Positions 26,630 through 49,229 of a stretch of DNA of 64,000 bases are shown here, piece by piece; positions within the stretch are counted from its first letter, which is position 1; each line of letters begins with the position of its first letter. A program made the position numbers and the translations under genes. This DNA comes from an uncultured Fibrobacteraceae bacterium. GTDB lineage: Bacteria > Krumholzibacteriota > Krumholzibacteriia > LZORAL124-64-63. The DNA lies in assembly GCA_964607825.1 (NCBI GenBank), contig CAZSNA010000001.1:23697-87696 (forward strand). Direction: 5' to 3'. The notes under the pieces were generated by a model, which saw only the letters and a program-made list of their open reading frames with translations, ran no database searches and had not been told where the DNA came from.

Positions 26630-27574
26630 CTAGGTTCTCAGCGGGACATCCAACTCCATCAGGGCCGACGCCAACTTGATCAGCGGCGGCATCGCGAGAC
26701 CGGCCATGATGTTGATCTTCTCCACCAGCTCGCGCTTCAGATCCGACTCCTCGCCGTCGCTGCGCTGTTCGCGGATCTCGCGGGTCAGGCGGCTGAGGGA
26801 CTTGCGACCGTCGCTGCGCTGGATCTTGCCGCGCAGCCGCAGGATCGCCTTGGTGTGGATCTGGCACACGCGCGATTCGGTCACGTCGAGGATCTCGCCG
26901 ATCTCCTTGAGGGTGAGCTCCTCGTAGTAGTAGAGCACCAGCACGAGCTGCTCCTTGTCGGAGAGCTCGCCCAGGCTGCCCGCGACCAGGGCGCGCATCT
27001 CGTCCTCGGAGACGCTGGTCTCGGCGTCGGGCGTGCGGGTGTCGGGCAGGTAGTCGCCCAGACTGGAGCTGTTGGAATCGTCGTCCGAGTTGTCGGCGTC
27101 CAGGGAGACGATGGTGGCCACGGCCACCTCGTCCATCATCTGCGACAGCTCGCCGCGACTGACGCCCAGGTCCTTGGCGATCTCCTCGTCCGTGGGCGTG
27201 CGCCCGAAGCGCGCCTCCAGTCTGACGAAGGCGTCCTCGAGCTGGCGCGCCTTGCGGCGCAGCGAGCGCGGGAACCAGTCCTGCGAGCGCAGCTCGTCGA
27301 GGATCGCGCCGCGGATGCGCGGGATCGCGTAGGTCTCGAACTTGTTCCCGCGCCGGTAGTCGTAGTTGTCGATGGCCTGGATCAGGCCCAGCAACCCGGC
27401 GGAGATCAGATCCTTGTGGTCCACGTAATGGGGCAGTCCGATGGACATGCGCCCCGCCACGAACTTGACCACCCGCGCGTAGAGCTCGACCAGGTCCCGG
27501 CGGGCCTCCTGGTCCTCGCCCGCCTGCAGGCGCTCCCAGAGTTCGAAATGGGCGATGGTTTCTGTCTTCAGCAT
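26630..27574 (-). CDS. fliA: Flagellar sigma factor sigma28 (FliA/SigD), with a ~60-aa C-terminal extension
   Basis: Region 2 (HKDLISAGLLGLIQAIDNYDYRRGNKFETYAIPRIRGAILDELR), region 3 and region 4 HTH (LTLKEIGEILDVTESRVCQIHTKAILRL). 314 aa, against ~240 typical. Confidence 0.9.
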   Translation of the reverse strand: MLKTETIAHFELWERLQAGEDQEARRDLVELYARVVKFVAGRMSIGLPHYVDHKDLISAGLLGLIQAIDNYDYRRGNKFETYAIPRIRGAILDELRSQDWFPRSLRRKARQLEDAFVRLEARFGRTPTDEEIAKDLGVSRGELSQMMDEVAVATIVSLDADNSDDDSNSSSLGDYLPDTRTPDAETSVSEDEMRALVAGSLGELSDKEQLVLVLYYYEELTLKEIGEILDVTESRVCQIHTKAILRLRGKIQRSDGRKSLSRLTREIREQRSDGEESDLKRELVEKINIMAGLAMPPLIKLASALMELDVPLRT

Positions 27575-27612
27575 GCAGTGCCTCGTTGTGGGTGTCGGGT
27601 CTCGTTCAGGTC

Positions 27613-27627
27613 AGCAGTTTCCGTGCC
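27613..27627 (-). promoter_or_regulatory. Candidate sigma54 promoter upstream of fliA (GGCACG-N5-TGCT on the minus strand)
   Basis: Reverse complement gGGCACGgaaacTGCTg satisfies GG-N10-GC with a strong -24 element. About 40 nt upstream of the fliA ATG. Confidence 0.35.
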
Positions 27628-27632
27628 CGTCG

Positions 27633-27983
27633 TCATGGGGTCGCAGCCTCTTCGGCCGCCTTCTCCTCCGCCTCGCCGATGAGCTGCTTCTTGCGCTCTT
27701 CCTTGCGCCGGTCGCGCTCGGCCTGACGTTCGGCTTCCGCCTTCAGGCGCGTCTCTTCCTGCTCCTGCTGCTTGCGAAGTATCCGCTCGTGGTCCTCGCG
27801 CACCCACTCGTCGTGGATGCCGGCCCTGAAGACCAGGCTCAGGAGCGATCCCACCAGGTAGAAGGCGAAGTAGGCGATGGCCGCCCGCTTGAGCGTGGGC
27901 AGCGCGCCGAAGTCGCGCAGCAGCGCGTGGAGGATCGTGATGAGGGCCGCCCCCATGGCGGCGCTGTTGACGAACATCCGCAA
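27633..27983 (-). CDS. Hypothetical 116-aa protein: two predicted TM helices plus a K/E/R/Q-rich charged C-terminal tail. Occupies the slot where flhG/fleN normally lies
   Basis: MRMFVNSAAMGAALITILHALL…AYFAFYLVGSLLSLVF then …RKQQEQEETRLKAEAERQAERDRRKEERKKQ…. Fits exactly between flhF and fliA. Confidence 0.45.
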   Translation of the reverse strand: MRMFVNSAAMGAALITILHALLRDFGALPTLKRAAIAYFAFYLVGSLLSLVFRAGIHDEWVREDHERILRKQQEQEETRLKAEAERQAERDRRKEERKKQLIGEAEEKAAEEAATP

Positions 27984-28001
27984 GGGTCTCCTCCTTCAGG
28001 C

Positions 28002-29123
28002 TCAGCGGCTCTCCGCGGCCCGGACCGCGTCGACGCCGAGGATGCGCTCCACGAGGTCCGCGGCGTCGGGAATGACGGGGTGCGACCCCGGCCACTCGCC
28101 GCCGGCGACCAGCGACACGGCCATGGGAGCCGAGAGCAGCACGTCGACCAGCTTGCCCGGACCCGCCGTACGGTCCAGCCGCGTCAGGGACAGCCAGTCG
28201 CAGTTCCAGCCCCGCGCCTCGCTCCAGGCGCGCTCGCGGGCGGGGGTGTCGATATCCAGGGGCAGGACCAGGTGGCGGTGCACGTTCTCCAGGCCCGCCA
28301 GCATGTCCCGGAGGTCGGGATCGGACATGACGTCGCCGGTATGGGCCGGCGTGTCGATCAGCACGACGTCGTAGGCGGCGAAGATCTCGAGCCCGGCGGC
28401 GAGATGGGCCGCGTCCTTGAGGATGGCGGCGTCGTAGCCGTGGGCGGTGGCCTCCTCCCGGAAGCGCTCGATCTCGCCGGCGTGGCGCGGCGCGTAGGTC
28501 AGCACCAGGGCGCGATGACCCAGATCCTTCAGGCGCGCGGCCGTGGCGAGCACCAGGTCGGTCTTGCCCGCGCCCGGCCCCCCCAGGAAGAGATGGCATC
28601 CGGCCAGCGAGGCCCAGTCCCCGCCGCTGGTGCGGAGCTGGTCGCGCAGATGCCGCTCGGCCGTATGGGGCCGCCGGCCGCCGGTCTCGGCCAGGTAGAG
28701 GCGGCGCAGGAGGCGGACCGCGGGCAACGAGGCGCCGGTGGCCAGGAGCCGCTTGGCCAGGGGGTAGTCGTCGAAGCCGGTCTCGCGTTCCGCGCGTTCG
28801 GCGGCCTCGCGCTTCACGAGCGTCTCCACCATGGTCTCGATCCGCTCGACCTCGGCGCGGATGGCCTCGGCGGTGCGGGCGGGATCGGGACGCGGCTGCG
28901 GCGGCGTCGATGCGATCGGCGTCTCCCCCGGCGCCGGGCAGACGCTCACCTCGATGAACCGCTCGTCGCCGCGGGTCACGCTGCGCGTCTCGATGATGCA
29001 GGCGTCTTCACCGAACTCCCTGCGAGCCCCGGCGAGGGCGGCGCGGAGGGTCCGGCCGCGGATCTTGTGGACCACGGGGTCCAGGATCGCGGCGCCGGTC
29101 TCAGGCGTTGGCTTGCTGCTCAT
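28002..29123 (-). CDS. flhF: Flagellar biosynthesis SRP-type GTPase FlhF
   Basis: G1 LFLGGPGAGKTDLVLATAARL, G3 DTPAH, N-terminal B-domain-like region. Immediately after flhA. Confidence 0.85.
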   Translation of the reverse strand: MSSKPTPETGAAILDPVVHKIRGRTLRAALAGARREFGEDACIIETRSVTRGDERFIEVSVCPAPGETPIASTPPQPRPDPARTAEAIRAEVERIETMVETLVKREAAERAERETGFDDYPLAKRLLATGASLPAVRLLRRLYLAETGGRRPHTAERHLRDQLRTSGGDWASLAGCHLFLGGPGAGKTDLVLATAARLKDLGHRALVLTYAPRHAGEIERFREEATAHGYDAAILKDAAHLAAGLEIFAAYDVVLIDTPAHTGDVMSDPDLRDMLAGLENVHRHLVLPLDIDTPARERAWSEARGWNCDWLSLTRLDRTAGPGKLVDVLLSAPMAVSLVAGGEWPGSHPVIPDAADLVERILGVDAVRAAESR

Positions 29124-31215
29124 GTTGCACTCCCTGTAAGGAGACGGTTCCCGCGGACTGGACCTTGGTCTGGGCGGTCACCTCGGTGTAGCCCATGACC
29201 GGCAGGGTCGGGAACGTGGGTTCGATGAGTCGTTTGACGAACAGCCGCAGGGGCGTCGGCAGCAGCAGCACCGGCGGACGGCCCCGGGCGTAGACCTTCT
29301 GCAGGGTTCGTTCCAGCTGCTCCAGGAAGGACTGGGCCAGCAGCGGATCCAGCACCACCGCGCCGGCGCGCTCCGATTCGTGGACGGCCTGGCCGAGGCG
29401 CTGTTCGAGCTCCGGATGCAGGGTGACGGCGTAGACGTTCCCGTCGGGTTCCACGTAGAGGCGGCTGACGGTCCGCCGCAGCGCCTCGCGAACCTTCTCG
29501 ACCAGGTAGTCGGGACCGGCCTTGGCCTCCACGTGGTTGGCCAGCGTCTCCAGGATGGTGACGACGTCCTTGATGGGCACCCGCTCGTGCAGCAGCCCCT
29601 TGAGCACGTTGTGCAGGGTGTTGACGGGCACCTTGTCGGGGATCAGGTCCTCGATCAGGGCCGGCGCGAATTCGCGCACCGACTCGCACATGTCCTTCAC
29701 GTCCTGCCGCGAGAGCAGCTCGTCGGCGTGGGCGCGGATGGTCTCGCTCAGGTGGGTCGCCAGCACGGCGGTGGGCTCCACGACGGTGTAGCCCTCCATC
29801 TCGGCGGCGGCCTTGCGCGCGGGGTCGATCCAGACGGCGGGCAGCTGGAAGGCCGGCTCGACGGTCTCGAGGCCCTCGATCCGCTCCCCGCTCGTGTTGC
29901 CGGTGCTCATGGCCAGCAGGCGCCCCGGCTGCAGCTCGGCACGGTTGATCTCCACGCCCTTGAGCTTCAGCACGTAGGCGTTGGCCTCGAGCTGGAGGTT
30001 GTCCCGCACGCGGATGGGCTGGATGACCAGCCCCAGCTCGGAGCTGATCTGCTTGCGGATGTTGGTGATGCGCACCAGCAGGTCGCCGCCGCGCGACTCG
30101 TCCACCATGGGCAGCAGGCCGTAGCCCAGCTCCAGCTCCAGGGCGTCGGTCACGTAGAGCTCGCGGGTCAGGGACTCCTGCTCCGTCTCGGCGGGCGTGG
30201 CCGCCTCCTGCGCGGCCTGCTCGGCCGCGTCCTGGCGCTTCATGCGCTCGACGCGGCCGGCCACGATCCGTCCCGCCAGCGCGAACACGCCCGCGAGGCT
30301 CAGGAAGGGCATGGTGGGCAGACCGGGAATGAGGCCGAATACGGCCAGTGATCCCGCGGCCAGATACACGGCCTTGGGCTGGCGGAAGATCTGCAGCGTC
30401 AGGGCCTGGCCCAGGTTGAGCTTGCCGCTGGAGCGGGTGACCACCATGCCGGCGGCGGTCGAGACCAGCAGGGCGGGGATCTGGCTGACCAGGCCGTCGC
30501 CGACGGTCAGGATGGTGAACTGCCGCAGGGCCTCGCCGGCGGACAGGCCCATCTGGAGCATGCCCACCACGAAGCCGCCGATGATGTTGATCAGGGTGAT
30601 CACGATGCCGGCGATGGCATCGCCGCGGACGAACTTGCTGGCGCCGTCCATGGCGCCGAAGAACTCGGCCTCCGAGGCCACCTCGGCCCGACGCTCCCGG
30701 GCCTGGGCCTCGGTGATCAGGCCGGCGTTGAGGTCGGCGTCGACGGCCATCTGCTTGCCGGGCATGGCGTCCAGGGTGAAACGGGCGGCCACCTCGGCGA
30801 TCCGGCCCGAACCCTTGGTGATCACCACGAACTGGACGATCACCAGGATGGCGAAAACTATGACACCGATGACATAATTCCCGCCGATCACGAAGTCGCC
30901 GAAACTGGCGATCACCTTGCCGGCCGCGCCCTTGGAGAGGATCAGACGCGTCGAGGCCACGTTCAGGGCGAGCCTGTAGAGGGTCACCATCAGCAGCAGC
31001 GAGGGGAAGCTGGAGAAGTGGAGGGGCTCTTTCAGGTACAGGGCCACCAGCAGGACGACCACCGCGAAGGCGATGTTGAAAGTGATCAAAAGGTCCAGGA
31101 CGATGGGATTTACGGGCATGATCATCAGACCGATGACCGCCACCACCGCCAGGGCGCTCAGCACGTTGCTATTGGCCAGGATCAGATCCCGGTCGATGCC
31201 CTTGGTCCCTTCCAC
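29101..31215 (-). CDS. flhA: Flagellar export apparatus protein FlhA
   Basis: 704 aa; N-terminal 8-TM domain (…FGDFVIGGNYVIGVIVFAILVIVQFVVITKGSGRIAEVAARFTLDAMPGKQMAVDADL…) and large cytoplasmic C-domain. Confidence 0.95.
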   Translation of the reverse strand: MEGTKGIDRDLILANSNVLSALAVVAVIGLMIMPVNPIVLDLLITFNIAFAVVVLLVALYLKEPLHFSSFPSLLLMVTLYRLALNVASTRLILSKGAAGKVIASFGDFVIGGNYVIGVIVFAILVIVQFVVITKGSGRIAEVAARFTLDAMPGKQMAVDADLNAGLITEAQARERRAEVASEAEFFGAMDGASKFVRGDAIAGIVITLINIIGGFVVGMLQMGLSAGEALRQFTILTVGDGLVSQIPALLVSTAAGMVVTRSSGKLNLGQALTLQIFRQPKAVYLAAGSLAVFGLIPGLPTMPFLSLAGVFALAGRIVAGRVERMKRQDAAEQAAQEAATPAETEQESLTRELYVTDALELELGYGLLPMVDESRGGDLLVRITNIRKQISSELGLVIQPIRVRDNLQLEANAYVLKLKGVEINRAELQPGRLLAMSTGNTSGERIEGLETVEPAFQLPAVWIDPARKAAAEMEGYTVVEPTAVLATHLSETIRAHADELLSRQDVKDMCESVREFAPALIEDLIPDKVPVNTLHNVLKGLLHERVPIKDVVTILETLANHVEAKAGPDYLVEKVREALRRTVSRLYVEPDGNVYAVTLHPELEQRLGQAVHESERAGAVVLDPLLAQSFLEQLERTLQKVYARGRPPVLLLPTPLRLFVKRLIEPTFPTLPVMGYTEVTAQTKVQSAGTVSLQGVQHEQQANA

Positions 31216-31229
31216 TCACTCGCCTCCTC

Positions 31230-32288
31230 TCAGGATCGCTTGAGCCGGTAGACGTAGGCCAGCACCTCGGCCACGGCCTGGTACAGGTCGTCCGGTATGA
31301 AGCCGCCCACCTTCACGACCTTATGCAGCGCCCGTGCCAGGGGCTTGTTCTCGATCACCGGGACGCGATGTTCCCGCGCGATGCGCCGGATGACGGCGGC
31401 CAGCTCGTCGGCGCCCTTGGCCACCACCGTGGGCGCCACGTCGCCCGGGGCGTAGCGCAGGGCCACCGCGAAGTGGGTCGGGTTGGTGACCACCACGTCG
31501 GCCCGGGGCACGTCGGCCAGCATGCGCTTGCGCATGGCCTCGAGCTGGATGGCGCGGATACGGGCCTTGATCTGCGGATCGCCCTCGGTGTCCTTGTGCT
31601 CCTCCTTGACCTCCTGCAGGGTCATCTTCAGCCGCTGCTCGTGCTGCCACTTCTGGAAGGTCCAGTCGATGACCGCCAGCAGGGCCAGGAAGGCGATCAG
31701 CCGATAGGCCAGCACGGCCACCGACTTGATGCCCAGGGTGATGATCCCCTCGATCGGCAGCTCGGCCGAGCCGGGCATGTCCTCCCCCAGCCCCCGGACC
31801 GTCCACCAGGCCAGCACGCCGATCAGGGTGATCTTCAGCAGGTTCTTGAAGAGGTCGAAGGCCGCGCGCTTGCCGAAGATGTTCTTGATGCCGTTGATCG
31901 GGTTGATGTTCTCCACCCGGAAGGCCAGGGCGCTGATGTTGACCTTCCACCCCACCTGCAGGACGTTGCCCAGGAACCCGAAGATCAGGATGCCGAGCAT
32001 CAGCGGCGCCAGGGCGGCCACGATCACGCCCACGTTGGCGCGGGCGATCTCCACCAGGGCGTAGGGGCTCTCGAGCAGGAAGATGTGCGCCTCGCGGAAC
32101 AGGTAGCGGCTGTTGTCGCCCAGGACGTTGCGCATGTGGCGGGCGGCCACGAAGAGCAGGGAGAAGCCGGCCAGCAGCACCATGGCGCTGTTGACCTCCT
32201 GGCTCAACGCCACCTGACCCTTCTCGAGGGCCTTTTCGCGGCGTCTGGGTGTTGCTTGTTCCGTGCGTTCGCCGGCCGCGTCCGCCAT
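31230..32288 (-). CDS. flhB: Flagellar export apparatus protein FlhB
   Basis: 352 aa; 4 TM, NPTH autocleavage motif (VVTNPTHFAVALRY). Confidence 0.92.
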   Translation of the reverse strand: MADAAGERTEQATPRRREKALEKGQVALSQEVNSAMVLLAGFSLLFVAARHMRNVLGDNSRYLFREAHIFLLESPYALVEIARANVGVIVAALAPLMLGILIFGFLGNVLQVGWKVNISALAFRVENINPINGIKNIFGKRAAFDLFKNLLKITLIGVLAWWTVRGLGEDMPGSAELPIEGIITLGIKSVAVLAYRLIAFLALLAVIDWTFQKWQHEQRLKMTLQEVKEEHKDTEGDPQIKARIRAIQLEAMRKRMLADVPRADVVVTNPTHFAVALRYAPGDVAPTVVAKGADELAAVIRRIAREHRVPVIENKPLARALHKVVKVGGFIPDDLYQAVAEVLAYVYRLKRS

Positions 32289-32336
32289 GACGTCTCACCT
32301 CCTCGGGGGCGCGCCGCTCCCGCGGCGGAAAGGGGA

Positions 32337-33122
32337 TCAGCCCTGGAGCGAGCCCAGCAGCAGGGCCAGCTCGTTCTCCATGCGCCCGACCACGGCGCCG
32401 AAGACCTGGTGGAAGAACGTGAGCGACACGCCCATGGCGGCCAGGCCCACCGCGATCTTGATGGGGAAGCCCACCACCAGGATGTTGATCTGGGGCACCG
32501 TCTTGACGATGAAGCCCATGGACACGCTCAGCAGCAGCAGCACCAGGATCACCGGCGCCGCCACGCGCAGCCCGATGGCGAAGAACTCGGCGAAGCGCTC
32601 CAGGGTCAGCCAGGTGGCGCCGCCCAGCTCCACCGGCGCGAAGGGCGGCACCAGCCGCGTGCTCTCCACCATGGCCGCCACCAGCGTGTGGTGCGCGTCC
32701 AGGGTGAAGAACAGCAGCACCGCCAGCAGGTAGTAGATGTTGGACAGCACCGTGTAGCGGCCGCCGGTCTGCGGGTCGAGGGTGTTGACCATGCCGAAGC
32801 CGATCTGCACGCCGATCACGGCGCCCGCGAAACGCACCGCCGCGAAGGGGATGCCCACCGAGAAGGCGATCAACGCGCCCACGCCCAGCGAACGCAGGCC
32901 CTCGGCGGCCAGTCCGCGCCAGCTCAGGTCCAGGGCGTCGGGGGACATCTCGGCGGCGATGGCCGGGGCGGTCGAGATGGCGAGACAGACCGCCAGGGCG
33001 ATCCGCCAGGTCGGGGGCACGGTGCGTCCGGCGAGCAGGGGCAGGAGGGCGGTCAGCATCGCGAGACGCAGGGTCAGGACCAGGCCCACGATCATCCAGG
33101 TCAGGTCGAGCTCGAACCCCAC
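32337..33122 (-). CDS. fliR: Flagellar export apparatus protein FliR
   Basis: 261-aa polytopic membrane protein between fliQ and flhB, FliR-like helices. Confidence 0.85.
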   Translation of the reverse strand: MGFELDLTWMIVGLVLTLRLAMLTALLPLLAGRTVPPTWRIALAVCLAISTAPAIAAEMSPDALDLSWRGLAAEGLRSLGVGALIAFSVGIPFAAVRFAGAVIGVQIGFGMVNTLDPQTGGRYTVLSNIYYLLAVLLFFTLDAHHTLVAAMVESTRLVPPFAPVELGGATWLTLERFAEFFAIGLRVAAPVILVLLLLSVSMGFIVKTVPQINILVVGFPIKIAVGLAAMGVSLTFFHQVFGAVVGRMENELALLLGSLQG

Positions 33123-33131: not shown

Positions 33132-33395
33132 CTACATGGCGCCGATGCGCTCGAAGATGCCCATGGTGAAGGTGGTGAGCTGGTGGATGATCCAGGGCAG
33201 CGCCAGGATCATCACCACGAACACGGCCACGATCTTGGGCACGAAGGTCATGGTCATCTCGTTGATGTGGGTGGCCGCCTGGAAGATGCTGATGGTCAGA
33301 CCCACCAGCATGCCCGCGGCCAGCATCGGACCCGCCACCATCAGCGTGGTGCGCAGGGCGAGCTGTCCGAGTTCGACGACGGTTTCGGGTGTCAT
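33132..33395 (-). CDS. fliQ: Flagellar export apparatus protein FliQ
   Basis: 87 aa; LGQLALRTTLMVAGPMLAAGMLVGLTISIFQAATHINEMTMTFVPK. Confidence 0.9.
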   Translation of the reverse strand: MTPETVVELGQLALRTTLMVAGPMLAAGMLVGLTISIFQAATHINEMTMTFVPKIVAVFVVMILALPWIIHQLTTFTMGIFERIGAM

Positions 33396-33408: not shown

Positions 33409-34185
33409 TCAGCCGTTCTGGAAGGCCGTCACCAGCGAGCGCACGATCAGGTACCAGCCGTCCACCAGCACGAAGAGCAGCACCTTGAAGGGCAGGCTGA
33501 TCAGCACCGGCGGCAGCATCATCATGCCCATGGACATCAGGACCGACGCCACGACCATGTCGATGATCAGGAACGGCAGGAAGAGCACGAAGCCGATCTG
33601 GAAGGCCATCTTCAGCTCGCCCAGCACGAAGCTGGGCACCACGATCAGCAGGGAGAGCTCCGCGGGATCCTCGGGGGGATCCTGCCCCGTGAGCTCCAGG
33701 AACAGGGAGACGTCCTTCTCGCGCACCTGGCGGAGCATGAACTCCTTCAGGGGGCCCTGGGCGCGCTGCAGCGCCTCCCCCTGCTCGATCTCCTCGGCCA
33801 GGTAGGGCTGCAGGGCCTCGTCGTTGATCTGGGTGAAGACGGGGCTCATGATGATGAAGGTCAGGAACAGGGCCAGGCCGATGAGGATCTGGTTGGAGGG
33901 CATCTGGTTGGTGCCCATGGCCTGGCGCAGGAAGCCCAGCACGATGATGATGCGGGTGAAGCTGGTCAGCAGGATCAGGAGCGCCGGCGCCAGCGACAGC
34001 AGGGTCATCAGCAGGACGATCTCGACCGCCACGTCCAGGCGCGCGCCGCCGTCCATGTCCCCCAGCGAGAGGTTCACGGCGCCGGTCGCCGCGGGGGTCG
34101 CCGCGTCCTGGGCCTGGACCGGGGCGACGGCCGCCGCGAGCACGGTCAGGAGGCAGGCGATGATCTGGACGTGTCGTCGGGTCAA
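33409..34185 (-). CDS. fliP: Flagellar export apparatus protein FliP (with signal peptide)
   Basis: 258 aa; signal peptide then IVLLMTLLSLAPALLILLTSFTRIIIVLGFLRQAMGTNQMPSNQILIGLALFLTFIIMSPV. Confidence 0.92.
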   Translation of the reverse strand: MTRRHVQIIACLLTVLAAAVAPVQAQDAATPAATGAVNLSLGDMDGGARLDVAVEIVLLMTLLSLAPALLILLTSFTRIIIVLGFLRQAMGTNQMPSNQILIGLALFLTFIIMSPVFTQINDEALQPYLAEEIEQGEALQRAQGPLKEFMLRQVREKDVSLFLELTGQDPPEDPAELSLLIVVPSFVLGELKMAFQIGFVLFLPFLIIDMVVASVLMSMGMMMLPPVLISLPFKVLLFVLVDGWYLIVRSLVTAFQNG

Positions 34186-34249: not shown

Positions 34250-34267
34250 CCGCAAGGCGCGTGCCAG
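34250..34267 (-). promoter_or_regulatory. Sigma54 promoter (cTGGCACG-cgcc-TTGCG on the minus strand) in the 175-nt fliO-fliP gap
   Basis: Direct reading of the reverse complement of ccgcaaggcgcgtgccagg. Near-perfect match to TGGCACG-N4-TTGCA. About 55 nt upstream of the fliP ATG. Confidence 0.6.
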
Positions 34268-38583: not shown

Positions 38584-38613
38584 TGTCATTCACTCCTGCG
38601 CCGCACGCGCGGG

Positions 38614-42447: not shown

Positions 42448-43001
42448 CAACCCGCTCCCTTCATCTCGTCGGCCTTGCGGGCGCTCATGCGCGAGCTGAT
42501 CTCCGCGGCGAGCCCGGGATTCATGGCGGCCAGGATCTTGGCGGCCTGACGGTCCTTCATGTTGCGCAGGATAGGCAGCACGATGTCGAGGTCCAGGCTC
42601 GACAGGATCGGCGCCGCCTGCGCGGGCTTCATGGCCTCGTAGACCTTGGACAGCTTGCTCGCCTGGGCGTCGCTCCCCGAGGCGAACTGCTTCTGGGCCT
42701 CCTGCAGGTCGGCGATCAGTTCGGATAGCTTGTCGTCGCGTTCGGAAAGCAGCTTGTCCTCCACCTCGTAGAGCGACTGGCGCATCAGGTCGTGCTCGCG
42801 CTCGCGCTGGATGTCGTCGCGGGCCCGGGCCAGGTTCATGTAGAGCGTCTGCTCGGCGTCGCCGTCCCGTTCGACGGAGGCGGCCTCCTTGAGCGTCCGC
42901 TTCAGATCGCGCACGGCGTCCTGGTAGAGGCCGCCGCTGATCATGACGACGGCCAGGATCACCGTGAAGGTCAGGGAGGAGATGATGATGATCGACTTCA
43001 T
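42447..43001 (-). CDS. MotE/FlbB/YlxF-like flagellar protein (N-terminal TM, coiled coil, MgtE-N-like C-terminal motif)
   Basis: MKSIIIISSLTFTVILAVVMISGGL, then coiled coil, then …AAPILSSLDLDIVLPILRNMKDRQAAKILAAMNPGLAAEI… Positioned between fliJ and fliK as in the B. subtilis and spirochaete fla operons. Confidence 0.5.
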   Translation of the reverse strand: MKSIIIISSLTFTVILAVVMISGGLYQDAVRDLKRTLKEAASVERDGDAEQTLYMNLARARDDIQREREHDLMRQSLYEVEDKLLSERDDKLSELIADLQEAQKQFASGSDAQASKLSKVYEAMKPAQAAPILSSLDLDIVLPILRNMKDRQAAKILAAMNPGLAAEISSRMSARKADEMKGAG

Positions 43002-43435
43002 GCTCTGCGTCCGCTCCCCCTGGAGGCGATCTCATCGGTGCGTTTCTGGTCCAGACGGCGTTGCCGCTGCGACCATTCGTCGTGACGGCGGTCCTTCAGC
43101 ATCTCCAGGGCGCGCACCTCTCGTTGAGCGGCCAGCAGGTGCCGGCGCTGCGCGTCGGCCCGCTGCCGGATGGCCCGGATCTCGTCCTCGTTGTGCCGGA
43201 TCAGCCGCTGCTGCCCCTGTACGAATTCCGTGAGACGCCGTCGCTCGTTCAGGTCGTCGCTCGTGACGCCGGGCGCCGCGGCCGCCGCCAGCTCCCTGCA
43301 GCGCGCCGCCATGCGGGCGTTCTCACGCTCCAGGACCAGCGCCGCGGACTCGATCGCATGCAGTTTTCGTGCCTCGGCCTCCATGCGTCGGACACGATGG
43401 CGCAGCACGGCCTCGAGCTTGAAGCGGAATGGCAT
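42998..43435 (-). CDS. fliJ: Flagellar export chaperone FliJ
   Basis: 145-aa coiled-coil protein (MPFRFKLEAVLRHRVRRMEAEARKL…) immediately after fliI. Confidence 0.65.
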   Translation of the reverse strand: MPFRFKLEAVLRHRVRRMEAEARKLHAIESAALVLERENARMAARCRELAAAAAPGVTSDDLNERRRLTEFVQGQQRLIRHNEDEIRAIRQRADAQRRHLLAAQREVRALEMLKDRRHDEWSQRQRRLDQKRTDEIASRGSGRRA

Positions 43436-43438
43436 CCG

Positions 43439-44752
43439 TTACTCCGATGTCAGTGCGGACAGGTCGTTTAGCGTATCGTCCCAGTCGGCCCTGTCGGTCA
43501 GCGTCTGGCGAAGGAACACGTTCATCGCGTCGCGCTTGCGCAGGGCGGTGTCGACCAGGGGATCGGATCCGGCCACGTACGCTCCGATGTTGATCAGGTC
43601 CCGGTTCTCTTCCAGGGCCTTGAGCCAGCGCAGCAGGGTGATGCCGGCCTCCTGGATCCCGTCGTCCACCACGTCGTTACGCAGGCGCGAGACGCTGCCC
43701 AGGACGTCGACGGCCGGGAAGTGGCCCTGGCGCGCCAGGTCGCGGCTGAGCATCACGTGGCCGTCCAGGATCGAACGCATGGCGTCGCCCACGGGGTCGT
43801 GCTCGTCGTCGCCCTCGATCAGGACCGTGAAGAAGGCGGTGATGGCGTTGGTGTCCGTCCAGCCGGGGCGCTCGCAGAGCTTGGGCAGGGTCGCGAAGAC
43901 CGACGGCGTGTAGCCCTTGGTGGTGGGCGGCTCCCCCGCCGCCAGACCGATCTCGCGCAGGGCCATGGCGTAGCGGGTCACCGAGTCCATCATGAACAGC
44001 ACGTTGTCGCCGCGGTCGCGGAAGAACTCCGCGATGGTCATGGCCGTCTCGGCGCCCTTGACGCGCAGCACGGCGTTCTCGTCCGAGGTCACCACGATCA
44101 CCACGCTGCGGGCCAGCCCCTCGGGGCCGAGGTCGCGCTCGATGAACTCGCGCACCTCGCGGCCGCGCTCGCCGATCAGGGCCACCACGTTGACGTCGGA
44201 GGCGGCGTTCCGGGCCATCTGTCCCAGCAGCACGCTCTTGCCCACGCCGCTCCCGGCGAAGATGCCCATGCGCTGGCCCCGGGCCACGGTGACCAGACCG
44301 TCGATGGAGCGGATGCCGGTGGGAAAGGGACTCGCGATGCGCTGCCGGCTCAGGGCCGGGGGCGGCGGCGCGGTGACGGTGCGTTCCGAGGCCGAATCCA
44401 GGGGCGGGCCGCCGTCGATGGGCTGCCCCAGGCCGTCGAGCACGCGCCCGAGCAGATGCGATCCGGCCGGGACGGTCAGGCGCTTGGAGGTCACGGTCGC
44501 CCGTTGTCCGGGCGCGATGCCGGCCAGGGACCGGTAGGGCATCACCACGGCGCGTCCGTCGCGATAGCCGATCACCTCGCCGTTGACGGGCTCCTCGGCC
44601 CGCCCCCGCTCGATGCGGCAGACCGTGCCCACCGACGCGGACAGGCCCTTCACCTCGACGGTCAGGCCCACGATGCTCTCGACGGTGCCGGTGACGCGGA
44701 CGGTATCGACGCGGCTGACGCGGCGGATGGTCTCGGCCCAGGGCAGGCTCAC
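43439..44752 (-). CDS. fliI: Flagellum-specific ATPase FliI
   Basis: 437 aa; Walker A GIFAGSGVGKSVLLG, Walker B …VLFMMDSVTR, F1/T3SS ATPase family. Confidence 0.95.
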   Translation of the reverse strand: MSLPWAETIRRVSRVDTVRVTGTVESIVGLTVEVKGLSASVGTVCRIERGRAEEPVNGEVIGYRDGRAVVMPYRSLAGIAPGQRATVTSKRLTVPAGSHLLGRVLDGLGQPIDGGPPLDSASERTVTAPPPPALSRQRIASPFPTGIRSIDGLVTVARGQRMGIFAGSGVGKSVLLGQMARNAASDVNVVALIGERGREVREFIERDLGPEGLARSVVIVVTSDENAVLRVKGAETAMTIAEFFRDRGDNVLFMMDSVTRYAMALREIGLAAGEPPTTKGYTPSVFATLPKLCERPGWTDTNAITAFFTVLIEGDDEHDPVGDAMRSILDGHVMLSRDLARQGHFPAVDVLGSVSRLRNDVVDDGIQEAGITLLRWLKALEENRDLINIGAYVAGSDPLVDTALRKRDAMNVFLRQTLTDRADWDDTLNDLSALTSE

Positions 44753-45426
44753 GACGGCGCCCCCTCCTGCGGCGCGCCGCCCAGCATGGCCTGCCGGACC
44801 GCCTCTTCCATCACCTCGAGGCGGCCGGAGACGGTGTAGTCGAATTCCTGGCCGTCCACCTCCACCAGGCAGCCGCCGCGCTCGATGCGCTGGTCCACCT
44901 CGATGCCGACGATGTTCAGGCGCTCCAGCTCCTCGGGCTGCGAGCGGAGGAATTCCGCGTCCGCGGGGTTGACCAGGACGGTGAAGCGGGTGCCGCGCTT
45001 GGTGCGGTAGATGACGGTCTCCAGGGCCGTCAGCAGCGCGTCGCTGTCGAGCTCGATGCTCCGGCGCACGATCTGCTCGGCCATGGCGATGGACAGGTCG
45101 AGGGCCTGGCGGGATACGGTCTCCAGCGCGGCGTCGTACTTCTTCTCGAGGGCCTGGACCAGGTGCCTGGCGACGCTCTTGCCCTTCTCGAGCCAGAGGG
45201 CGTTCTCCTCCTCCAGCTCGCTCCGGATCTCCTCGCGGAGCTCGTCGCTCACCAGTTGGTAGAGGGATTCGCGCTCGTCGAGCTCCAGGCGGTCCAGGAA
45301 GCCCTTCAGGCCGTCGCGGGGGAAGTCCTCGACGAAGTCCTGCCCCGCGGGTTCGGAGGGCTCGGCCACGGCCGTGGCCACGGCTTCGGAGGCGGCGTAG
45401 AGATCATCAGGCGACCACGGACGCAC
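44749..45426 (-). CDS. fliH: Flagellar assembly protein FliH (exact start uncertain)
   Basis: 225 aa; acidic coiled-coil N-half and C-terminal FliH-domain (…FTVLVNPADAEFL…GGCLVEVDGQEFDYTVSGRLEVMEEAV). Position between fliG and fliI. Confidence 0.7.
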   Translation of the reverse strand: MRPWSPDDLYAASEAVATAVAEPSEPAGQDFVEDFPRDGLKGFLDRLELDERESLYQLVSDELREEIRSELEEENALWLEKGKSVARHLVQALEKKYDAALETVSRQALDLSIAMAEQIVRRSIELDSDALLTALETVIYRTKRGTRFTVLVNPADAEFLRSQPEELERLNIVGIEVDQRIERGGCLVEVDGQEFDYTVSGRLEVMEEAVRQAMLGGAPQEGAPS

Positions 45427-46411
45427 CGCCGCCTCCCCTGCCGAGCACGATCACGCCTTCGTCCATCATGCGACGTACGACGGCCACGATCTTCTGCTGG
45501 GCCTCCTCCACGTCCGAGATGGGCACCGGGCCCATGTACTCCATGTCCTCCTGGATGCCGGACGCGGCGCGCTTGGACATGTTCTTGTAGATCTTCTCCT
45601 GGATGTTGCTGGGCGTGCCCTTCAGGGCGGTCGCGAGCTCCTTGCCCTTGACCTCCTTGAGGATCTCCTGGATGTAGTGGTCGTCCAGGTTCACCAGGTC
45701 CTCGAAGACGAACATGAGGTTCTTGATCTCGGTGGCGCACTCGTCGTCGATCTCGCGCACGTCGTCGATGATCTCGAGCCAGGAATCCTGTTCGATCTCG
45801 TTGAGCACCGCGGCCACCTGCTTGCGGCCGCCGAAGTTGCGGGCGGTGCCCTTGATCTCGTCGCGGACCAGTCCGTTGATGGTCTCCTCGACGATCTTCA
45901 GGGCCTGGGGATTGGGCTTGTCGAGACTGGCCATGCGATGCGCGATGCGCCCCTGCAGGGACGCGGGCATGATGGACAGGATGGGCCCGCTGGTGCGCGG
46001 GTCCACGTAGGAGAGCACCAGCGCGATGGTCTGCGGATGCTCGTTCTTCAGGTAGTTCATCACCGTCAGGTGATCGACGCGCTTGAGGTTGTCGAAGCCC
46101 GGCATGTCGCTGAAGCCCGTGGCGCGGTTCAGCACCGAGTCCGCCTGGCGCTTGCCGAGGGCCTCCTCGAGGATCTCCAGGGCGCTGTTCTCGCCGCCGA
46201 ACTCCACGCCGGAGGCCTTGCGCCGCAGGTCGACGAACTCCTCGAGCACCGAGGACTTGTCGCGGTTGCTGACCAGCTTCACCTCGGAGATCTCCGCGGT
46301 GACCCGCTCCATCAGCTCCTCGGGCAGCCGCTTCATGATCTGGCCGGCGACCTTCGGTCCCAGCGAGATCATCAGGACGGCGATCTTGTGTACGGTTTCC
46401 CTGTCAGCCAC
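45407..46411 (-). CDS. fliG: Flagellar motor switch protein FliG
   Basis: 334 aa; HKIAVLMISLGPKVAGQIMKRL…, C-terminal torque helix region …GIQEDMEYMGPVPISDVEEAQQKIVAVVRRM. Confidence 0.92.
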   Translation of the reverse strand: MADRETVHKIAVLMISLGPKVAGQIMKRLPEELMERVTAEISEVKLVSNRDKSSVLEEFVDLRRKASGVEFGGENSALEILEEALGKRQADSVLNRATGFSDMPGFDNLKRVDHLTVMNYLKNEHPQTIALVLSYVDPRTSGPILSIMPASLQGRIAHRMASLDKPNPQALKIVEETINGLVRDEIKGTARNFGGRKQVAAVLNEIEQDSWLEIIDDVREIDDECATEIKNLMFVFEDLVNLDDHYIQEILKEVKGKELATALKGTPSNIQEKIYKNMSKRAASGIQEDMEYMGPVPISDVEEAQQKIVAVVRRMMDEGVIVLGRGGGGASVVA

Positions 46412-46434
46412 GTGTCATGCTCCCGGTGGTCTCG

Positions 46435-47946
46435 CTAGCCGTCCGCCTCGCCGACCCAGGCCTGGACCAGGTCGGCGATCTCCTGCGGGTTCGCGCCGGC
46501 GAAGTCCCGCACTTCGGTCAGGTTCTGCTCCAGCGTCACGACGGAGCTGTCGGTCTCCAGGATGTCCAGCGAGGCGCCGGTCTCGTCGACGACGGGGCCT
46601 GCGACGCCCGCTGCGACCGCACCGCCGGGCTCGGCCGCGCGTCCCACCATGGAGCCCAGGGTGCTGCGCAGCCGCAGGGCCATGAAGATGGCCAGGCCGA
46701 ACAGGAGCACCTTGCCGATGGTCTCGGGCAGGGTCTCCAGCAAGCCGCCCATGCCGCCGCCCTCGCCTTCGAGGGGCAGCGGATCGGGGTCGCGGAAGCG
46801 CATGTTGACGACCTCGATGCGGTCGCCGCGCGCGTCGTCCAGTCCCACGGCGGTCTGCACGATGCGGCCGATCTGCTCCAGCTCCTCCTCGGGCAGCGGC
46901 GTGTAGACCGGGTCGGCGCCGTCCTCGGCGGCCTCGTAGCTGCCGTCGACGAACACGGCGACCGACATGCTCTTCACGCCGCCCACCTCGCCCACGACCG
47001 TCTCGAGGGTCTCGTTGATCTCGTAGTTGGTGGTGGAGGTCTCGTTGCTGCCGCCCTCGCCCTCGCTGCTCTCGTTGCGCTCCTCGCTGCGGACCACCGT
47101 CTGGTTGGGGTCGAAGGTGCGGCGCTGCTGCTCGAGCCGCTCGAAATTCAGGGTGGCGTCCACGCGCACGATGGAGCGGTCGGGGCCGAGCACCTGGGCG
47201 AGCATGCCCTGGGCCTTCTCGGCCAGGTAGGTGTCGACTTCCTTCTTCATGGCCAGCTGGCTGTCGGAGCGGGCGACCGCGTCGTCGCCGTGGTTCTCGC
47301 TCAGCAGGACGCCGTACTGGTCGAGCACCGACACGTTGGGCGTCTCCAACCCCTCCACGCTGCCCGAGACCAGGCTCTGCACGCCGCGGATCTGCTGGGG
47401 CGACAGCGCGCTGCCCCGACCGAGGGTCAGCACGACGGTGGCGGTGGCCGGCGCCTGCATCTTCTTGAAGATCGACGGCTTGGGCGTGACCAGGTGGACG
47501 CGCGCGGCGCGGATCCCCGCGATGCTCTCGATGGTGCGGGTGAGCTCGCCCTCCAGGGCGCGCTTGAAGTTCACGTTCTGGACGAACTCGGTCATGCCGT
47601 ACTGCTTGCCGTCGAAGATGCCCCAGCCCACGGTGCCCGACGAGGGGATCCCCTTGGCCGACAGGTCGACCCGCAGCCTGTGGACCAGGTTGTCGGGCAC
47701 CATGATGGTGGTGCCGCCGTTGGACAGCTCGGCCTCCACGTTCGCCTTGGCGAGCTCGTCGATGGCCAGGGAGGCGTCTTCGGGCGAGAGGTTGGTGAAC
47801 AGGACCGCCTGTTCCTCGCTCTGCAGCCAGACGCTGAAGATGGCCACGCTGAGCATGGCGGCGCCGAGGATCACGCCCATCAGGATCTTCTGATTGAACG
47901 TGAAGCGGGCCGTCACGGCCTTCAGGTTGTCGAGCAGTTGCCTCAT
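46435..47946 (-). CDS. fliF: Flagellar MS-ring protein FliF
   Basis: 503 aa; N-terminal TM ILMGVILGAAMLSVAIFSVWL, YscJ/FliF ring domains, second TM near the C-terminus. Confidence 0.9.
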   Translation of the reverse strand: MRQLLDNLKAVTARFTFNQKILMGVILGAAMLSVAIFSVWLQSEEQAVLFTNLSPEDASLAIDELAKANVEAELSNGGTTIMVPDNLVHRLRVDLSAKGIPSSGTVGWGIFDGKQYGMTEFVQNVNFKRALEGELTRTIESIAGIRAARVHLVTPKPSIFKKMQAPATATVVLTLGRGSALSPQQIRGVQSLVSGSVEGLETPNVSVLDQYGVLLSENHGDDAVARSDSQLAMKKEVDTYLAEKAQGMLAQVLGPDRSIVRVDATLNFERLEQQRRTFDPNQTVVRSEERNESSEGEGGSNETSTTNYEINETLETVVGEVGGVKSMSVAVFVDGSYEAAEDGADPVYTPLPEEELEQIGRIVQTAVGLDDARGDRIEVVNMRFRDPDPLPLEGEGGGMGGLLETLPETIGKVLLFGLAIFMALRLRSTLGSMVGRAAEPGGAVAAGVAGPVVDETGASLDILETDSSVVTLEQNLTEVRDFAGANPQEIADLVQAWVGEADG

Positions 47947-47973
47947 CGCGTCGCGTCAGCTCCTCGTGGCGGT

Positions 47974-48276
47974 CTAGACCTGCATCTGCATGATCGTGTT
48001 GTAGCTCTCCAGCAGCTTGTTCCGCACCTCGAGCATGAGCTCGAAGGCCAGCTGCGCCTCCTCGGCGGCGATCATCACGTCGTGGACCTCGCCCACGTGT
48101 CCGGAGACCGCGCCCTCGATGACCTCGTCGCGGAACGACTGGGCGTCGTTCACCGCGGAGACGGCCTCTTGCAGTTTCGTTGCAAAGGACGGACCAGCCC
48201 CGGCGCCCGCGGCGTTTCCGCCGTAGACCTGCCGCGGATCGACGGCTCCGGGTATCCTGACGGCGTTGATGGCCAT
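47974..48276 (-). CDS. fliE: Flagellar hook-basal body protein FliE
   Basis: 100 aa; C-terminal …AAEEAQLAFELMLEVRNKLLESYNTIMQMQV typical of FliE. Confidence 0.85.
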   Translation of the reverse strand: MAINAVRIPGAVDPRQVYGGNAAGAGAGPSFATKLQEAVSAVNDAQSFRDEVIEGAVSGHVGEVHDVMIAAEEAQLAFELMLEVRNKLLESYNTIMQMQV

Positions 48277-48292
48277 GCGCGTCCTCCCCGTC

Positions 48293-48799
48293 CTAGATGT
48301 CCAGGGCCTTGGCGAACATCTGCTTGGCCGCCTGGACGGCCGAGATGTTGGCCTCGTAGGCCCGGCTGGCTGTGATCATGTCCACCATCTCGGTGATGAC
48401 GTTCACGTTGGGCATAAGTACGTAGCCCTCGGCGTCCGCGTCCGGATGGCCGGGATCGTAGACGACCTTGAATTCGGAGGCGTCGGGGGCCGTCTCGACC
48501 TGCATCTCGACGCCCCGGCTCACCCGGGTTGCGCCGCCGGCCCCGCCGGTGATGTGGCGCGGATCCGTGGCGGACAGGCCGCCCGATGCGCGTGACTCGG
48601 GACCGGGCAGGGCGCGACCGTCGAGCTTCTGCGCCAGGGTCTGCTCGAAGACGACCCGCTCGCGGCGATAGGGGGTGCCGTCCTCGGTGCGCGTGGTCTC
48701 GGCGTTGGCCAGATTCTTGGCGACCGTGTCCATTTTCGTCCGCATGCCCGACAGGCCGGACGAGCTGATCTTGATGGAGCCGAACAGTCCGTCACTCAT
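48293..48799 (-). CDS. flgC: Flagellar basal-body rod protein FlgC
   Basis: 168 aa; SSSGLSGMRTKMDTVAKNLANAETTRT… and C-terminal …ITEMVDMITASRAYEANISAVQAAKQMFAKALDI. Confidence 0.92.
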   Translation of the reverse strand: MSDGLFGSIKISSSGLSGMRTKMDTVAKNLANAETTRTEDGTPYRRERVVFEQTLAQKLDGRALPGPESRASGGLSATDPRHITGGAGGATRVSRGVEMQVETAPDASEFKVVYDPGHPDADAEGYVLMPNVNVITEMVDMITASRAYEANISAVQAAKQMFAKALDI

Positions 48800-48815
48800 G
48801 TCGTCGCCTCCTTCC

Positions 48816-49229
48816 CTACTTCACACGGCCCGAGACCGCTTCGCTCAGCTGCGTGTATTTCATGCTCAGCAGACGGGTGGCCAGGCGGTACGACAGCTCC
48901 GTCGTCGCCAGGGTCGCCATCTCCGTGTCCACGTTCACGTCGTTGATGCCGTTGTCGTGGCCGCTGTCCTGGGCCACGACCTCGCCGCGGGCGTCCTCGA
49001 GGGAGCGCACGCCGACAGGCAGATGCGCCGCATGGGTTTGCGCGCCCTGCAGCCGGCGTCCGGCCTCCTGGCGCAGCAGGCTCTCGAAGCGGTACTCCTG
49101 GGCCTTGTACCCGGACGTCTCCACGTTGGCGATGTTCTCGGCGGTCACGCGGTGGCGTCCCGAGTAGACCGTCAGCGCCTGTTTGAGATGACCGAGGTGG
49201 GCCTGTCCGAAGATGGTGGTGTCGAACAT
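48816..49229 (-). CDS. flgB: Flagellar basal-body rod protein FlgB
   Basis: 137 aa; …RHRVTAENIANVETSGYKAQ… and C-terminal …MATLATTELSYRLATRLLSMKYTQLSEA. Confidence 0.9.
   Translation of the reverse strand: MFDTTIFGQAHLGHLKQALTVYSGRHRVTAENIANVETSGYKAQEYRFESLLRQEAGRRLQGAQTHAAHLPVGVRSLEDARGEVVAQDSGHDNGINDVNVDTEMATLATTELSYRLATRLLSMKYTQLSEAVSGRVK

Follow-up and report, generated by a model that had tools for sequence, protein, structure and literature searches.

The DNA stretch analysed here (the window: 64,000 nucleotides of contig CAZSNA010000001.1, from an uncultured bacterium) carries, between positions 26630 and 49229, a cluster of 27 genes running on the minus strand from flgB to fliA, and it raises the question of whether this flagellar cluster is a foreign or unusual possession of its host or the ordinary flagellar gene set of the lineage. 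The original prediction, made from the letters of the DNA, described a Firmicutes/spirochaete-style cluster in a genome with hallmarks of the type IX secretion system (T9SS), and regarded the combination as unusual. According to the present data, the cluster is with a probability of about 0.85 the core of an ordinary flagellar regulon, passed on by vertical descent, of a Krumholzibacteriota bacterium, a member of the Fibrobacteres-Chlorobi-Bacteroidetes (FCB) superphylum with a G+C content of about 70%. The 27 genes encode the export gate, the MS ring and switch, the proximal rod, the hook, the stator, an FlhF-like protein and sigma-28, while neighbouring units contribute the distal rod, the P/L rings, the junction of hook and filament, flagellin, the cap, chaperones and regulators.

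The G+C content of the window is about 70% throughout (uniformly 0.65-0.75 along the 64 kb), and the real genes were picked among many overlapping spurious open reading frames (ORFs) by a G+C content at third codon positions (GC3) of about 0.9-0.97. The cluster consists of 27 consecutive intact minus-strand ORFs (GC3 about 0.9), and its ends are exact, 26630 being the stop of fliA and 49229 the start of flgB. Gene identities were assigned by Pfam and NCBIfam hidden Markov model (HMM) searches and judged against the curated cut-offs. In the 5' to 3' order of transcription, the genes are the following (scores in bits; the value after "vs" is the cut-off):

48816..49229 (-), flgB, proximal rod; TIGR01396 74.3 vs 59.05
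48293..48799 (-), flgC; TIGR01395 152.8 vs 102.1, Flg_bbr_C
47974..48276 (-), fliE; PF02049 83.2
46435..47946 (-), fliF, MS ring; YscJ_FliF 194.5, YscJ_FliF_C 117.4
45407..46411 (-), fliG; FliG_N, FliG_M and FliG_C, each above its cut-off
44749..45426 (-), fliH; PF02108 75.2
43439..44752 (-), fliI, export ATPase; ATP-synt_ab 279, T3SS_ATPase_C 71
42998..43435 (-), fliJ; PF02050 43.3, TIGR02473 52.3 vs 50.45
42447..43001 (-), YlxF/FlbB-like membrane-anchored MgtE_N-domain protein; PF03448 31.5 vs 25.9, NF047368 (spirochaete collar FlbB) 15.7 vs 110; position kept in relatives
41401..42450 (-), fliK, hook-length control; PF02120 Flg_hook 45.1
40760..41404 (-), flgD; FlgD 68.4, FlgD_ig 41.7
38614..40710 (-), flgE, hook, 698 residues; Flg_bb_rod, LlgE_F_G_D1, FlgE_D2, Flg_bbr_C
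38357..38584 (-), flbD; PF06289 82.5
37533..38321 (-), motA, stator; MotA_ExbB 105.9
36764..37516 (-), motB; MotB_plug 64, OmpA 68.8
36247..36771 (-), fliL; PF03748 63.3
35137..36201 (-), fliM; FliM 124.4, FliMN_C 57.9
34725..35135 (-), fliN; FliMN_C 87.3
34361..34723 (-), fliO candidate, single hydrophobic helix; TIGR03500 20.3 vs 55.25, E 4e-4, aligned over 4-69 of the 70 profile positions
33409..34185 (-), fliP; PF00813 274.8
33132..33395 (-), fliQ; Bac_export_3 93.3
32337..33122 (-), fliR; Bac_export_1 183
31230..32288 (-), flhB; Bac_export_2 400.7
29101..31215 (-), flhA; FHIPEP 876.7
28002..29123 (-), flhF-like, divergent NG-domain protein of the signal recognition particle (SRP) type; SRP54 26.4, TIGR03499 53.3 vs 174.15
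27633..27983 (-), small membrane protein of 116 residues between the flhF-like gene and fliA; no family match
26630..27574 (-), fliA, sigma-28; TIGR02479 FliA/WhiG 269.2 vs 189.6, NF005413 236.8 vs 201

The core set of a flagellum is therefore represented above the cut-offs: the export apparatus (FlhA, FlhB, FliP, FliQ, FliR, FliI, FliH, FliJ), the ring and switch proteins FliF, FliG, FliM and FliN, the rod and hook proteins FlgB, FlgC, FliE, FlgD, FlgE and FliK (Flg_hook), the stator proteins MotA and MotB, and FlbD, FliL and FliA. The predicted gene order was thus confirmed, with fliO and flhF below their cut-offs and one gene without a family match; the fliO candidate shares 42% identity with the ORF that a relative (the "Delphibacteria" genome introduced below) has at this place, and its position is conserved. 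The absence of che genes was confirmed as well, since the same scans found no Che domain in any gene of the window. As for the flbD and MotE/FlbB-like genes that had been named in the cluster, flbD is present and an MgtE_N domain does follow fliJ; the spirochaete collar model of FlbB (NF047368) scored far below its cut-off. The best NCBIfam models for MotA (37533-38321) were the sodium-type PomA (NF006527, 287.8 vs 341), MotP (247.2) and then MotA (201.2), all of them below the equivalog level.

The host was placed through the homologues of SecA and FlhA. Identities ran through 100, 88 and 85% and then from 75 to 64% for SecA, and through 100 and 85% down to 66% for FlhA. All SecA homologues with a name beyond "bacterium" were Candidatus Krumholzibacteria, -iia or -ota or bacterium DOLZORAL124_64_63, the rest being labelled "bacterium"; among the FlhA homologues, one at 68% was labelled Gemmatimonadales, and the other specific names were all Krumholzibacteria or -iia or DOLZORAL124_64_63. 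The latter is GCA_002747875, the 2017 "Delphibacteria" metagenome-assembled genome (MAG; locus L087), and GTDB puts Delphibacteria in the Krumholzibacteriota (bioRxiv 10.1101/2023.07.10.548433). To judge from these names, the host is a diderm of the Krumholzibacteriota, within the FCB superphylum; the FCB-type diderm that had been suggested, to be checked through the placement of secA, was borne out. Three of the relatives may serve as examples for the comparison of both proteins:

relative with a 247662-bp contig: SecA 88%, FlhA 85%
relative with a 298077-bp contig: SecA 71%, FlhA 72%
relative with a 41282-bp contig: SecA 65%, FlhA 68%

The two series match relative by relative, and thus secA and the flagellar cluster are linked and have diverged together. 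Moreover, the arrangement itself is conserved. GCA_002747875 and a 269-kb Joint Genome Institute (JGI) contig share with the window the order flgD-flgE-flbD-motA-motB-fliL-fliM-fliN-(FliO-position ORF)-fliP-fliQ-fliR-flhB-flhA-(FlhF-like)-(79-residue ORF)-fliA-(two small ORFs)-sigma-54 activator-(PorV-family)-SLT/LysM-GGDEF-ComEC. The upper half is conserved in the metagenome contigs L088-L096, found by a metagenome scan with FliF as the query (FliF identity 56-77%), in the order fliS/fliD/fliC, flgM, kinase, regulator, a gene for a 355-residue protein, an FlgN-like gene, and flgB through fliL. With the Krumholzibacteriota MAGs GCA_002747875 and JADHED010000001 the synteny is gene for gene, lineage-specific ORFs and neighbours included, and differences are few: in the Delphibacteria MAG two HDOD-HD genes are inserted between the two small ORFs and the sigma-54 activator, and in L091/L092 (JADHED010000001.1 and Ga0172375_10000779; about 19470-19700; 70% FliF identity) flbD is directly followed by fliL, motA and motB not being in the cluster, as in Bacillus. 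That a Krumholzibacteriota MAG carries genes for flagella and chemotaxis is already on record (PMC10936416).

The layout was then compared with those of other phyla. The order flgE-flbD-motA-motB-fliL-fliM-fliN-fliP-fliQ-fliR-flhB-flhA…fliA also occurs in loci of Chloroflexota (L005, L020), Atribacterota (L078), Clostridia and Lachnospiraceae and, with flbD detectable or not, in those of Fibrobacterales, Geothermobacter and Desulfotalea (Desulfobacterota). Because the same order occurs in so many phyla, the layout is, as far as gene order tells, a widely shared arrangement, conserved throughout the Krumholzibacteriota, and the long collinear flgB…fliA order should be read as such and not as a Firmicutes or spirochaete marker. 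The likeness to the Borrelia flgB operon stands as far as the order is concerned (flbD-motA-motB-fliL in mid-cluster, an MgtE_N/YlxF-like gene after fliJ); its specificity to Firmicutes and spirochaetes does not.

The flgB motility operon of Borrelia burgdorferi, which Ge and colleagues reportedly described in 1997, is said to comprise about 26 genes, from flgB to flhF/flhG. It has in common with the cluster the order flgB…fliJ-(MgtE_N/FlbB-position gene)-fliK-flgD-flgE-flbD-motA-motB-fliL…flhA-flhF. The place of motAB in the middle of the Borrelia operon is documented (PMC6663468). Unlike this operon, the locus studied here has fliA, a flgM-like gene, two sigma-54 activators and conserved -24/-12 motifs, no sigma-70-like site in the cluster and no flhG after the flhF-like gene; the FlbB collar model is not reached, and flgH, flgI and flgA lie nearby, so that the flagellum is presumably external rather than periplasmic. 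In the fla/che operon of Bacillus subtilis, the backbone is flgB…fliK-flgD-flgE-flbD(swrD)-fliL-fliM…flhA-flhF…sigD, the sigma-28 gene comes last, motAB lie outside the operon, and CsrA-FliW form a flagellin checkpoint. Backbone order, terminal fliA and CsrA-FliW are shared with the window; in contrast, the cluster of the window lacks che genes and flhG, it includes motAB (which the Bacillaceae/Paenibacillus loci L011, L014, L016 and L055, reading flgE-flbD-fliM…flhA…fliA, do not), the cell is a diderm with L/P rings, and sigma-54 motifs replace the sigma-A/sigma-D promoters.

The 27 genes form the central part of a locus that extends over about 44 kb and comprises about 50 genes. The ring and distal-rod genes had been described as lacking from the cluster, and flgF, flgG, flgH, flgI and flgA are indeed not found inside 26630-49229; they are not missing from the genome. 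L082, a 30-kb Logan contig retrieved by an exact-protein look-up with FlgK, matches the window at 99.99% identity over 12.9 kb (51135-64000) and adds 8.5 kb beyond its end. Its extension encodes, according to Pfam, FlgJ (Rod-binding + SLT), FlgI (407 bits), FlgH (156 bits), FlgA, FlgG and FlgF, which places flgJ-flgI-flgH-flgA-flgG-flgF just past base 64000, about 15-20 kb from flgB; the search for the five ring and rod genes beyond the cluster thus found all of them. With flgH, flgI, flgA, flgF and flgG in the same locus, the parts list of a standard external diderm flagellum is complete, and such a conventional flagellum is most likely what the cell would build. The flanking genes are the following:

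24163..25743 (-), sigma-54 enhancer-binding protein without receiver domain, FleQ/FlrA-like by position; Sigma54_activat 229, HTH_8; kept downstream of fliA in relatives
25805..26607 (-), two small ORFs after fliA, 103 and 155 residues; no family matches
49344..49742 (-), FlgN-like small protein directly upstream of flgB; PF05130 29 vs 30.5; 42-65% identity in relatives
49714..50781 (-), lineage-restricted solenoid protein of the tetratricopeptide repeat (TPR) kind, 355 residues, N-terminal hydrophobic helix, first gene of the flgB unit; no family match; syntenic in L089-L096
50914-52344 (-), sigma-54 response regulator; Response_reg + Sigma54_activat + HTH_8; syntenic in relatives
52341-54674 (-), histidine kinase; HisKA/HATPase_c; syntenic in relatives
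54779..55153 (-), flgM-like anti-sigma-28 factor; TIGR03824 30.5 vs 40.75, E 4.5e-7
55611-56450 (+), fliC; Flagellin_N/C above cut-off
56468-57826 (+), fliD; FliD_N/C above cut-off
57844-58341 (+), fliS; FliS above cut-off
58343-58672 (+), fliT-like; FliT 20.5 vs 29.5
58669-58914 (-), csrA; CsrA 88.5
58964-59536 (-), fliW; FliW 108
59567-61117 (-), flgL; TIGR02550 201 vs 127
61135-62508 (-), flgK; FlgK_D1
62518-63054 (-), flgN; FlgN
63072 to beyond 64000 (-), flgJ, cut by the window end; Rod-binding + SLT, seen on L082

The genes of the fliC-fliD-fliS-fliT-like unit are divergent from the minus-strand genes on the flgM side, and 58669..64000 (-) represents a late/hook-associated operon flgJ-flgN-flgK-flgL-fliW-csrA. 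Concerning the two ORFs after fliA, the 103-residue product is acidic and of low complexity, and the 155-residue one has one hydrophobic helix. The Delphibacteria MAG has ORFs of 106 and 148 residues in the same positions; the 103-residue ORF alone is detectably similar (35% identity, E 1e-11), no significant match being found between the 155-residue ORF and its positional counterpart.

The regulation of the locus was analysed through sigma-54 elements (-24/-12, GG-N10-GC); a loose scoring scan over the whole window proved too permissive at 70% G+C, and only intergenic sites conserved in relatives were kept. With one fixed pattern, the 1260 nt of upstream intergenic DNA yielded four sites where 0.30 were expected (P = 2.5e-4 for this pattern). 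The predicted sites are:

34252..34266 (-), predicted sigma-54 promoter upstream of fliP, perfect TGGCACGCGCCTTGC in the 175-nt fliO-fliP gap; TGGCACGCCCATTGC at the equivalent place in the Delphibacteria MAG
27613..27628 (-), predicted sigma-54 promoter upstream of fliA, GGGCACGGAAACTGCT; TGGCACGGATACTGCT at the same distance in the Delphibacteria MAG
50828..50843 (-), predicted sigma-54 promoter of the TPR-FlgN-like-flgB… unit, AGGCATGTCGATTGCG
55207-55222 (-), sigma-54-like motif upstream of the flgM-like gene, conserved in relatives
55256-55281 (-), sigma-28 motif upstream of the flgM-like gene, near-zero chance expectation
55435..55461 (+), predicted sigma-28 promoter of fliC, TAAA-N16-GCCGATA, 0 matches in 100 shuffles
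55568..55605 (+), leader of the fliC mRNA, with one CsrA-type site whose GGA lies in a hairpin loop (55568-55587) and a second whose GGA overlaps the Shine-Dalgarno sequence (55597-55605)

A conserved sigma-54-like element also precedes flgF, and GGCA(T/C)-N6-TTGC stands 59-63 nt upstream of the orthologue of the TPR gene in L089, L090, L091, L092 and L096. Between the response-regulator gene and the element at 50828 lies a terminator hairpin (about 50860-50890, -30.8 kcal/mol, then UUUUU). The two sites of the fliC leader read GUCAGGCAAGGAUGUCUGAC and AGGAAGGAG; the leader carries GCAAGGAUGU, whose GGA is in the hairpin loop, and the hairpin is present in the minimum free energy fold. The two make up a predicted CsrA site pair of the classic kind, and csrA-fliW adjoin. 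Inside the cluster no sigma-70-like promoter or terminator beyond chance was found. A further sigma-54-like element, AGGCACGAAAACTGCA, occurs at 43359-43374 (-) inside the 5' part of fliJ, with the counterparts AGGCACGAAAGCTGCA in L089 and AGGCACGGAAGCTGCA in L091/L092; it could be an internal promoter for MgtE_N-fliK-flgD-flgE or conserved coding sequence.

Two sigma-54 enhancer-binding proteins are encoded inside the locus. The best reading is that expression would be tiered rather than driven by one housekeeping promoter; promoter use, the targets of the regulators and motility we infer from the sequence. In a first tier, sigma-54 with the FleQ-like activator and the kinase/response-regulator pair would drive the early and middle units, namely flgM-kinase-regulator, TPR-FlgN-like-flgB…, fliP…, fliA… and flgF…; in a second, sigma-28, restrained by FlgM, would drive flagellin and flgM; in a third, CsrA-FliW would gate flagellin translation through the GGA sites of the fliC leader. 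Given the conserved sigma-54 and sigma-28 motifs and CsrA-FliW, the regulation therefore looks like that of Vibrio, Pseudomonas and Campylobacter, and not like one sigma-70 operon as in Borrelia, where a single sigma-70 promoter is used and no sigma-28/FlgM cascade is known. The framework is that of sigma-54-tiered polar flagella (PMC7064773). The features in common with Vibrio (FlrA, FlrBC), Pseudomonas (FleQ, FleSR) and Campylobacter (FlgSR) are a receiver-less sigma-54 activator beside a kinase/sigma-54 regulator pair, -24/-12 motifs before the rod/hook and fliA units, sigma-28/FlgM for flagellin, and an FlhF-type protein. The differences are the long collinear order (gammaproteobacterial operons are scattered), the lack of flhG in the locus, the divergent FlhF, and the presence of CsrA-FliW, a last step found in Bacillus and Campylobacter.

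In principle, the cluster could have been acquired horizontally from a Firmicute or a spirochaete, as its order, identical to that of the Borrelia flgB operon (PMC6663468) and of the Clostridia loci L009, L035 and L046, might suggest, together with a G+C content slightly lower than in the flanks (0.66-0.68 at 30-40 kb). This is very unlikely, and we rejected it on the basis of identity series, synteny and composition: among the matches listed, FlhA is 42-49% identical to Firmicutes, no more than to Fibrobacterota, KSB1, Zixibacteria, Ignavibacteriota or Chloroflexota, which argues against transfer; within the lineage its identities track those of SecA; the neighbourhood, non-flagellar genes included, is syntenic down to about 56-68% identity; and GC3 (about 0.9-0.97) is like that of housekeeping genes. 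Very unlikely too is a spirochaete-style periplasmic flagellum or collar-bearing motor. The membrane-anchored MgtE_N protein after fliJ recalls bb0286/FlbB, which follows fliJ in Borrelia, and the protein that heads the operon is of the TPR kind, as is the spirochaete collar protein FlcA. However, the FlbB model fails (15.7 vs 110), the L-ring gene flgH (156 bits) and the P-ring gene flgI (407 bits) are present, a fliD cap gene stands beside a single standard flagellin, none of the window genes scanned matched a Pfam family of sheath proteins such as FlaA, and the TPR protein matches generic TPR folds only; the failing model and the presence of flgH and flgI led us to discard this explanation. 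A decaying remnant in a non-motile organism is likewise highly improbable. In its favour, the FlhF-like, FliO, FlgM and FliT products score poorly, and a published model predicts functional CsrA homologues to be infrequent in Krumholzibacteriota (PMC13443453); against it, the approximately 50 genes of the locus contain no frameshift or internal stop, are strongly conserved and keep their lengths across relatives.

The remaining alternative concerns expression: the 27 genes, or all those from flgM to fliA, might, as in Borrelia, form one long operon read from a single housekeeping promoter, and the sigma-54-like motifs would be coincidental. The genes are co-directional with gaps of at most 175 nt, no terminator-like site inside the cluster exceeds chance, and no fixed-pattern motif directly precedes flgB. 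We consider this unlikely nonetheless: the cluster yielded no sigma-70-like promoter; the one internal gap of any size, between fliO and fliP, holds a perfect -24/-12 element kept in a relative whose FlhA is 68% identical; conserved elements of a similar kind stand before fliA, the TPR gene, flgM and flgF; and the locus itself encodes two sigma-54 activators.

Several points weigh against the cluster being the core of a normal, inherited and sigma-54-tiered regulon. The lineage placement comes from source-given homologue names rather than a phylogeny, and a scan of GTDB genomes with FlhA gave, among the matches listed (seeded on the universal peptide DAMPGKQM), identities of at most 52% in mixed phyla, with no Krumholzibacteriota. 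Such a listing does not speak for the absence of a lineage, and the SecA and FlhA homologues from the protein databases corrected the impression that close relatives are lacking. The products of fliO, flgM, the second FlgN-like gene and fliT fall below their cut-offs. The promoter assignments consist of motif matches and conservation, rpoN is not in the 64-kb window, and the 114-nt gap directly upstream of flgB has no sigma-54-like motif by the fixed pattern; we therefore assume that flgB shares a transcript with the two genes ahead of it. Furthermore, since the GTPase motifs of the FlhF-like protein are degenerate and no flhG stands beside it, the control of flagellar placement and number may differ from that of known polar flagellates.

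The FlhF-like protein, the flhG slot and the 355-residue TPR protein are the only non-routine features of the locus, and minor quirks of the lineage. The first is fast-evolving (56% identity in a relative whose FlhA is 85% identical) and labelled hypothetical at NCBI; it scores below the TIGR03499 cut-off (53.3 vs 174.15), and a sequence search of the PDB gave no FlhF match. Its AlphaFold2 model (predicted local distance difference test score, pLDDT, 84) had as top Foldseek match the Shewanella FlhF 8r9r (template modelling score 0.76 on the target), 2px0 reaching 0.72, and the modelled fold is that of the FlhF/SRP NG domain. In an 18-member alignment of the family, G3 reads D-T-P-x without the glycine (against DTAGR) and G4 reads TRLD (against TKLD); the Walker-A lysine (G1 GxxGxGKT) is R or T in several members, and new invariant motifs, HRH and WNCDW, appear. 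No flhG (MinD-like ATPase) was found after the flhF-like gene: the gene in its slot, for 116 residues (27633-27983), has no ParA/MinD match, and the same holds for the Delphibacteria MAG and the JGI contig. Its product is a two-helix membrane protein in the place that flhG takes in Bacillus and Borrelia; its N-terminal 51 residues are 35% identical to the 79-residue ORF in the same place of the Delphibacteria MAG.

The TPR protein belongs to a family of 55 cluster representatives among 1.84 billion proteins. Its AlphaFold2 model is all-alpha (pLDDT 90.6); the fold search returned generic or designed TPR matches only, with E above 1e-3, and a metagenome scan with the 355-residue protein by 8-mer seeding gave no match. 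A tentative possibility, doubtful on present data, is that Krumholzibacteriota control flagellar placement and number by a variant system, in which the FlhF-like protein would have lost the canonical GTPase chemistry and a small membrane protein would stand in for FlhG, the TPR protein co-transcribed with flgB being a new component of the basal body or its assembly.

On the whole, an uncultured FCB phylum appears to carry a complete, conventional flagellar regulon, the significance of which is mostly one of annotation. For enrichment work, the CsrA sites together with the conserved motifs for sigma-54 and sigma-28 offer a ready regulatory map, and the FlhF-like protein without an adjacent FlhG is a small lead for studies of flagellar number control.

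The T9SS hallmarks noted in the window concern two genes:

22958..24052 (-), PorV/PorQ-family outer-membrane beta-barrel; NF033709 103.6 vs 90
10418..13108 (-), M6-like metalloprotease with a C-terminal beta-sandwich tail; TIGR03296 83 vs 110.8

The PorV/FadL-like outer-membrane protein that had been proposed belongs to the broad PorV/PorQ family (NF033709) and stays far below the equivalog cut-offs: PorV2 156 vs 325, PorQ 62 vs 220, PorV (NF033710) 20.8 vs 250. Its gene has its own sigma-70-like promoter (TTGGCC-18-TATAAT, 24149-24120). The type-A sorting tail proposed for the protease failed HMM validation: the models aligned weakly, at full length, to the last 100 residues (TIGR04183 15.5 vs 23, PF18962 13 vs 27), and the best match of the tail was FlgD_ig (26.4 vs 27). 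None of PorK/L/M/N, SprA/Sov and PorU was found in the window, and no paper in the library searched connects Krumholzibacteriota to type IX secretion. With the locus syntenic across the phylum, the ring and rod genes present and the sorting tail below cut-off, the combination called unusual in the original prediction is not borne out.

Some minor observations concern the surroundings. The PorV/PorQ-family barrel also reaches, by a narrow margin, the cut-off of Pfam UPF0164 (21.6 vs 21.4), a family of outer-membrane proteins from Treponema, and its gene keeps its place beside the flagellar sigma-54 activator throughout the phylum (56% identity in GCA_002747875). Genes for lytic transglycosylases (SLT), three in number, lie in or flank the locus, at 8268-10409 (-), 21186-22919 (+) and 63072-64000 (-), the last being flgJ, whose product has SLT in place of the glucosaminidase domain. 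One SLT protein, of 713 residues, weakly matches the model of the Borrelia flagellar-assembly transglycosylase BB0259 (87 vs 234), and one, with SLT and two LysM domains, adjoins the PorV-family gene in relatives too. The flanking housekeeping genes, at 1-1350 (-), 1362-4052, 4518-7550 and 13197-17195, are topA, secA, guaA, purH and purC, besides a GidA-family gene truncated where the window begins, and a ComEC-like gene follows at 17244-19613. A GGDEF diguanylate cyclase gene at 19616-21004 (-) borders the locus at its lower edge, a place that it keeps in relatives, and a PilZ-domain gene, preceded by TGGCACGGCCCGTGCA, lies just upstream of flgF (3550-3945 of L082); together they suggest an input of cyclic di-GMP to motility.

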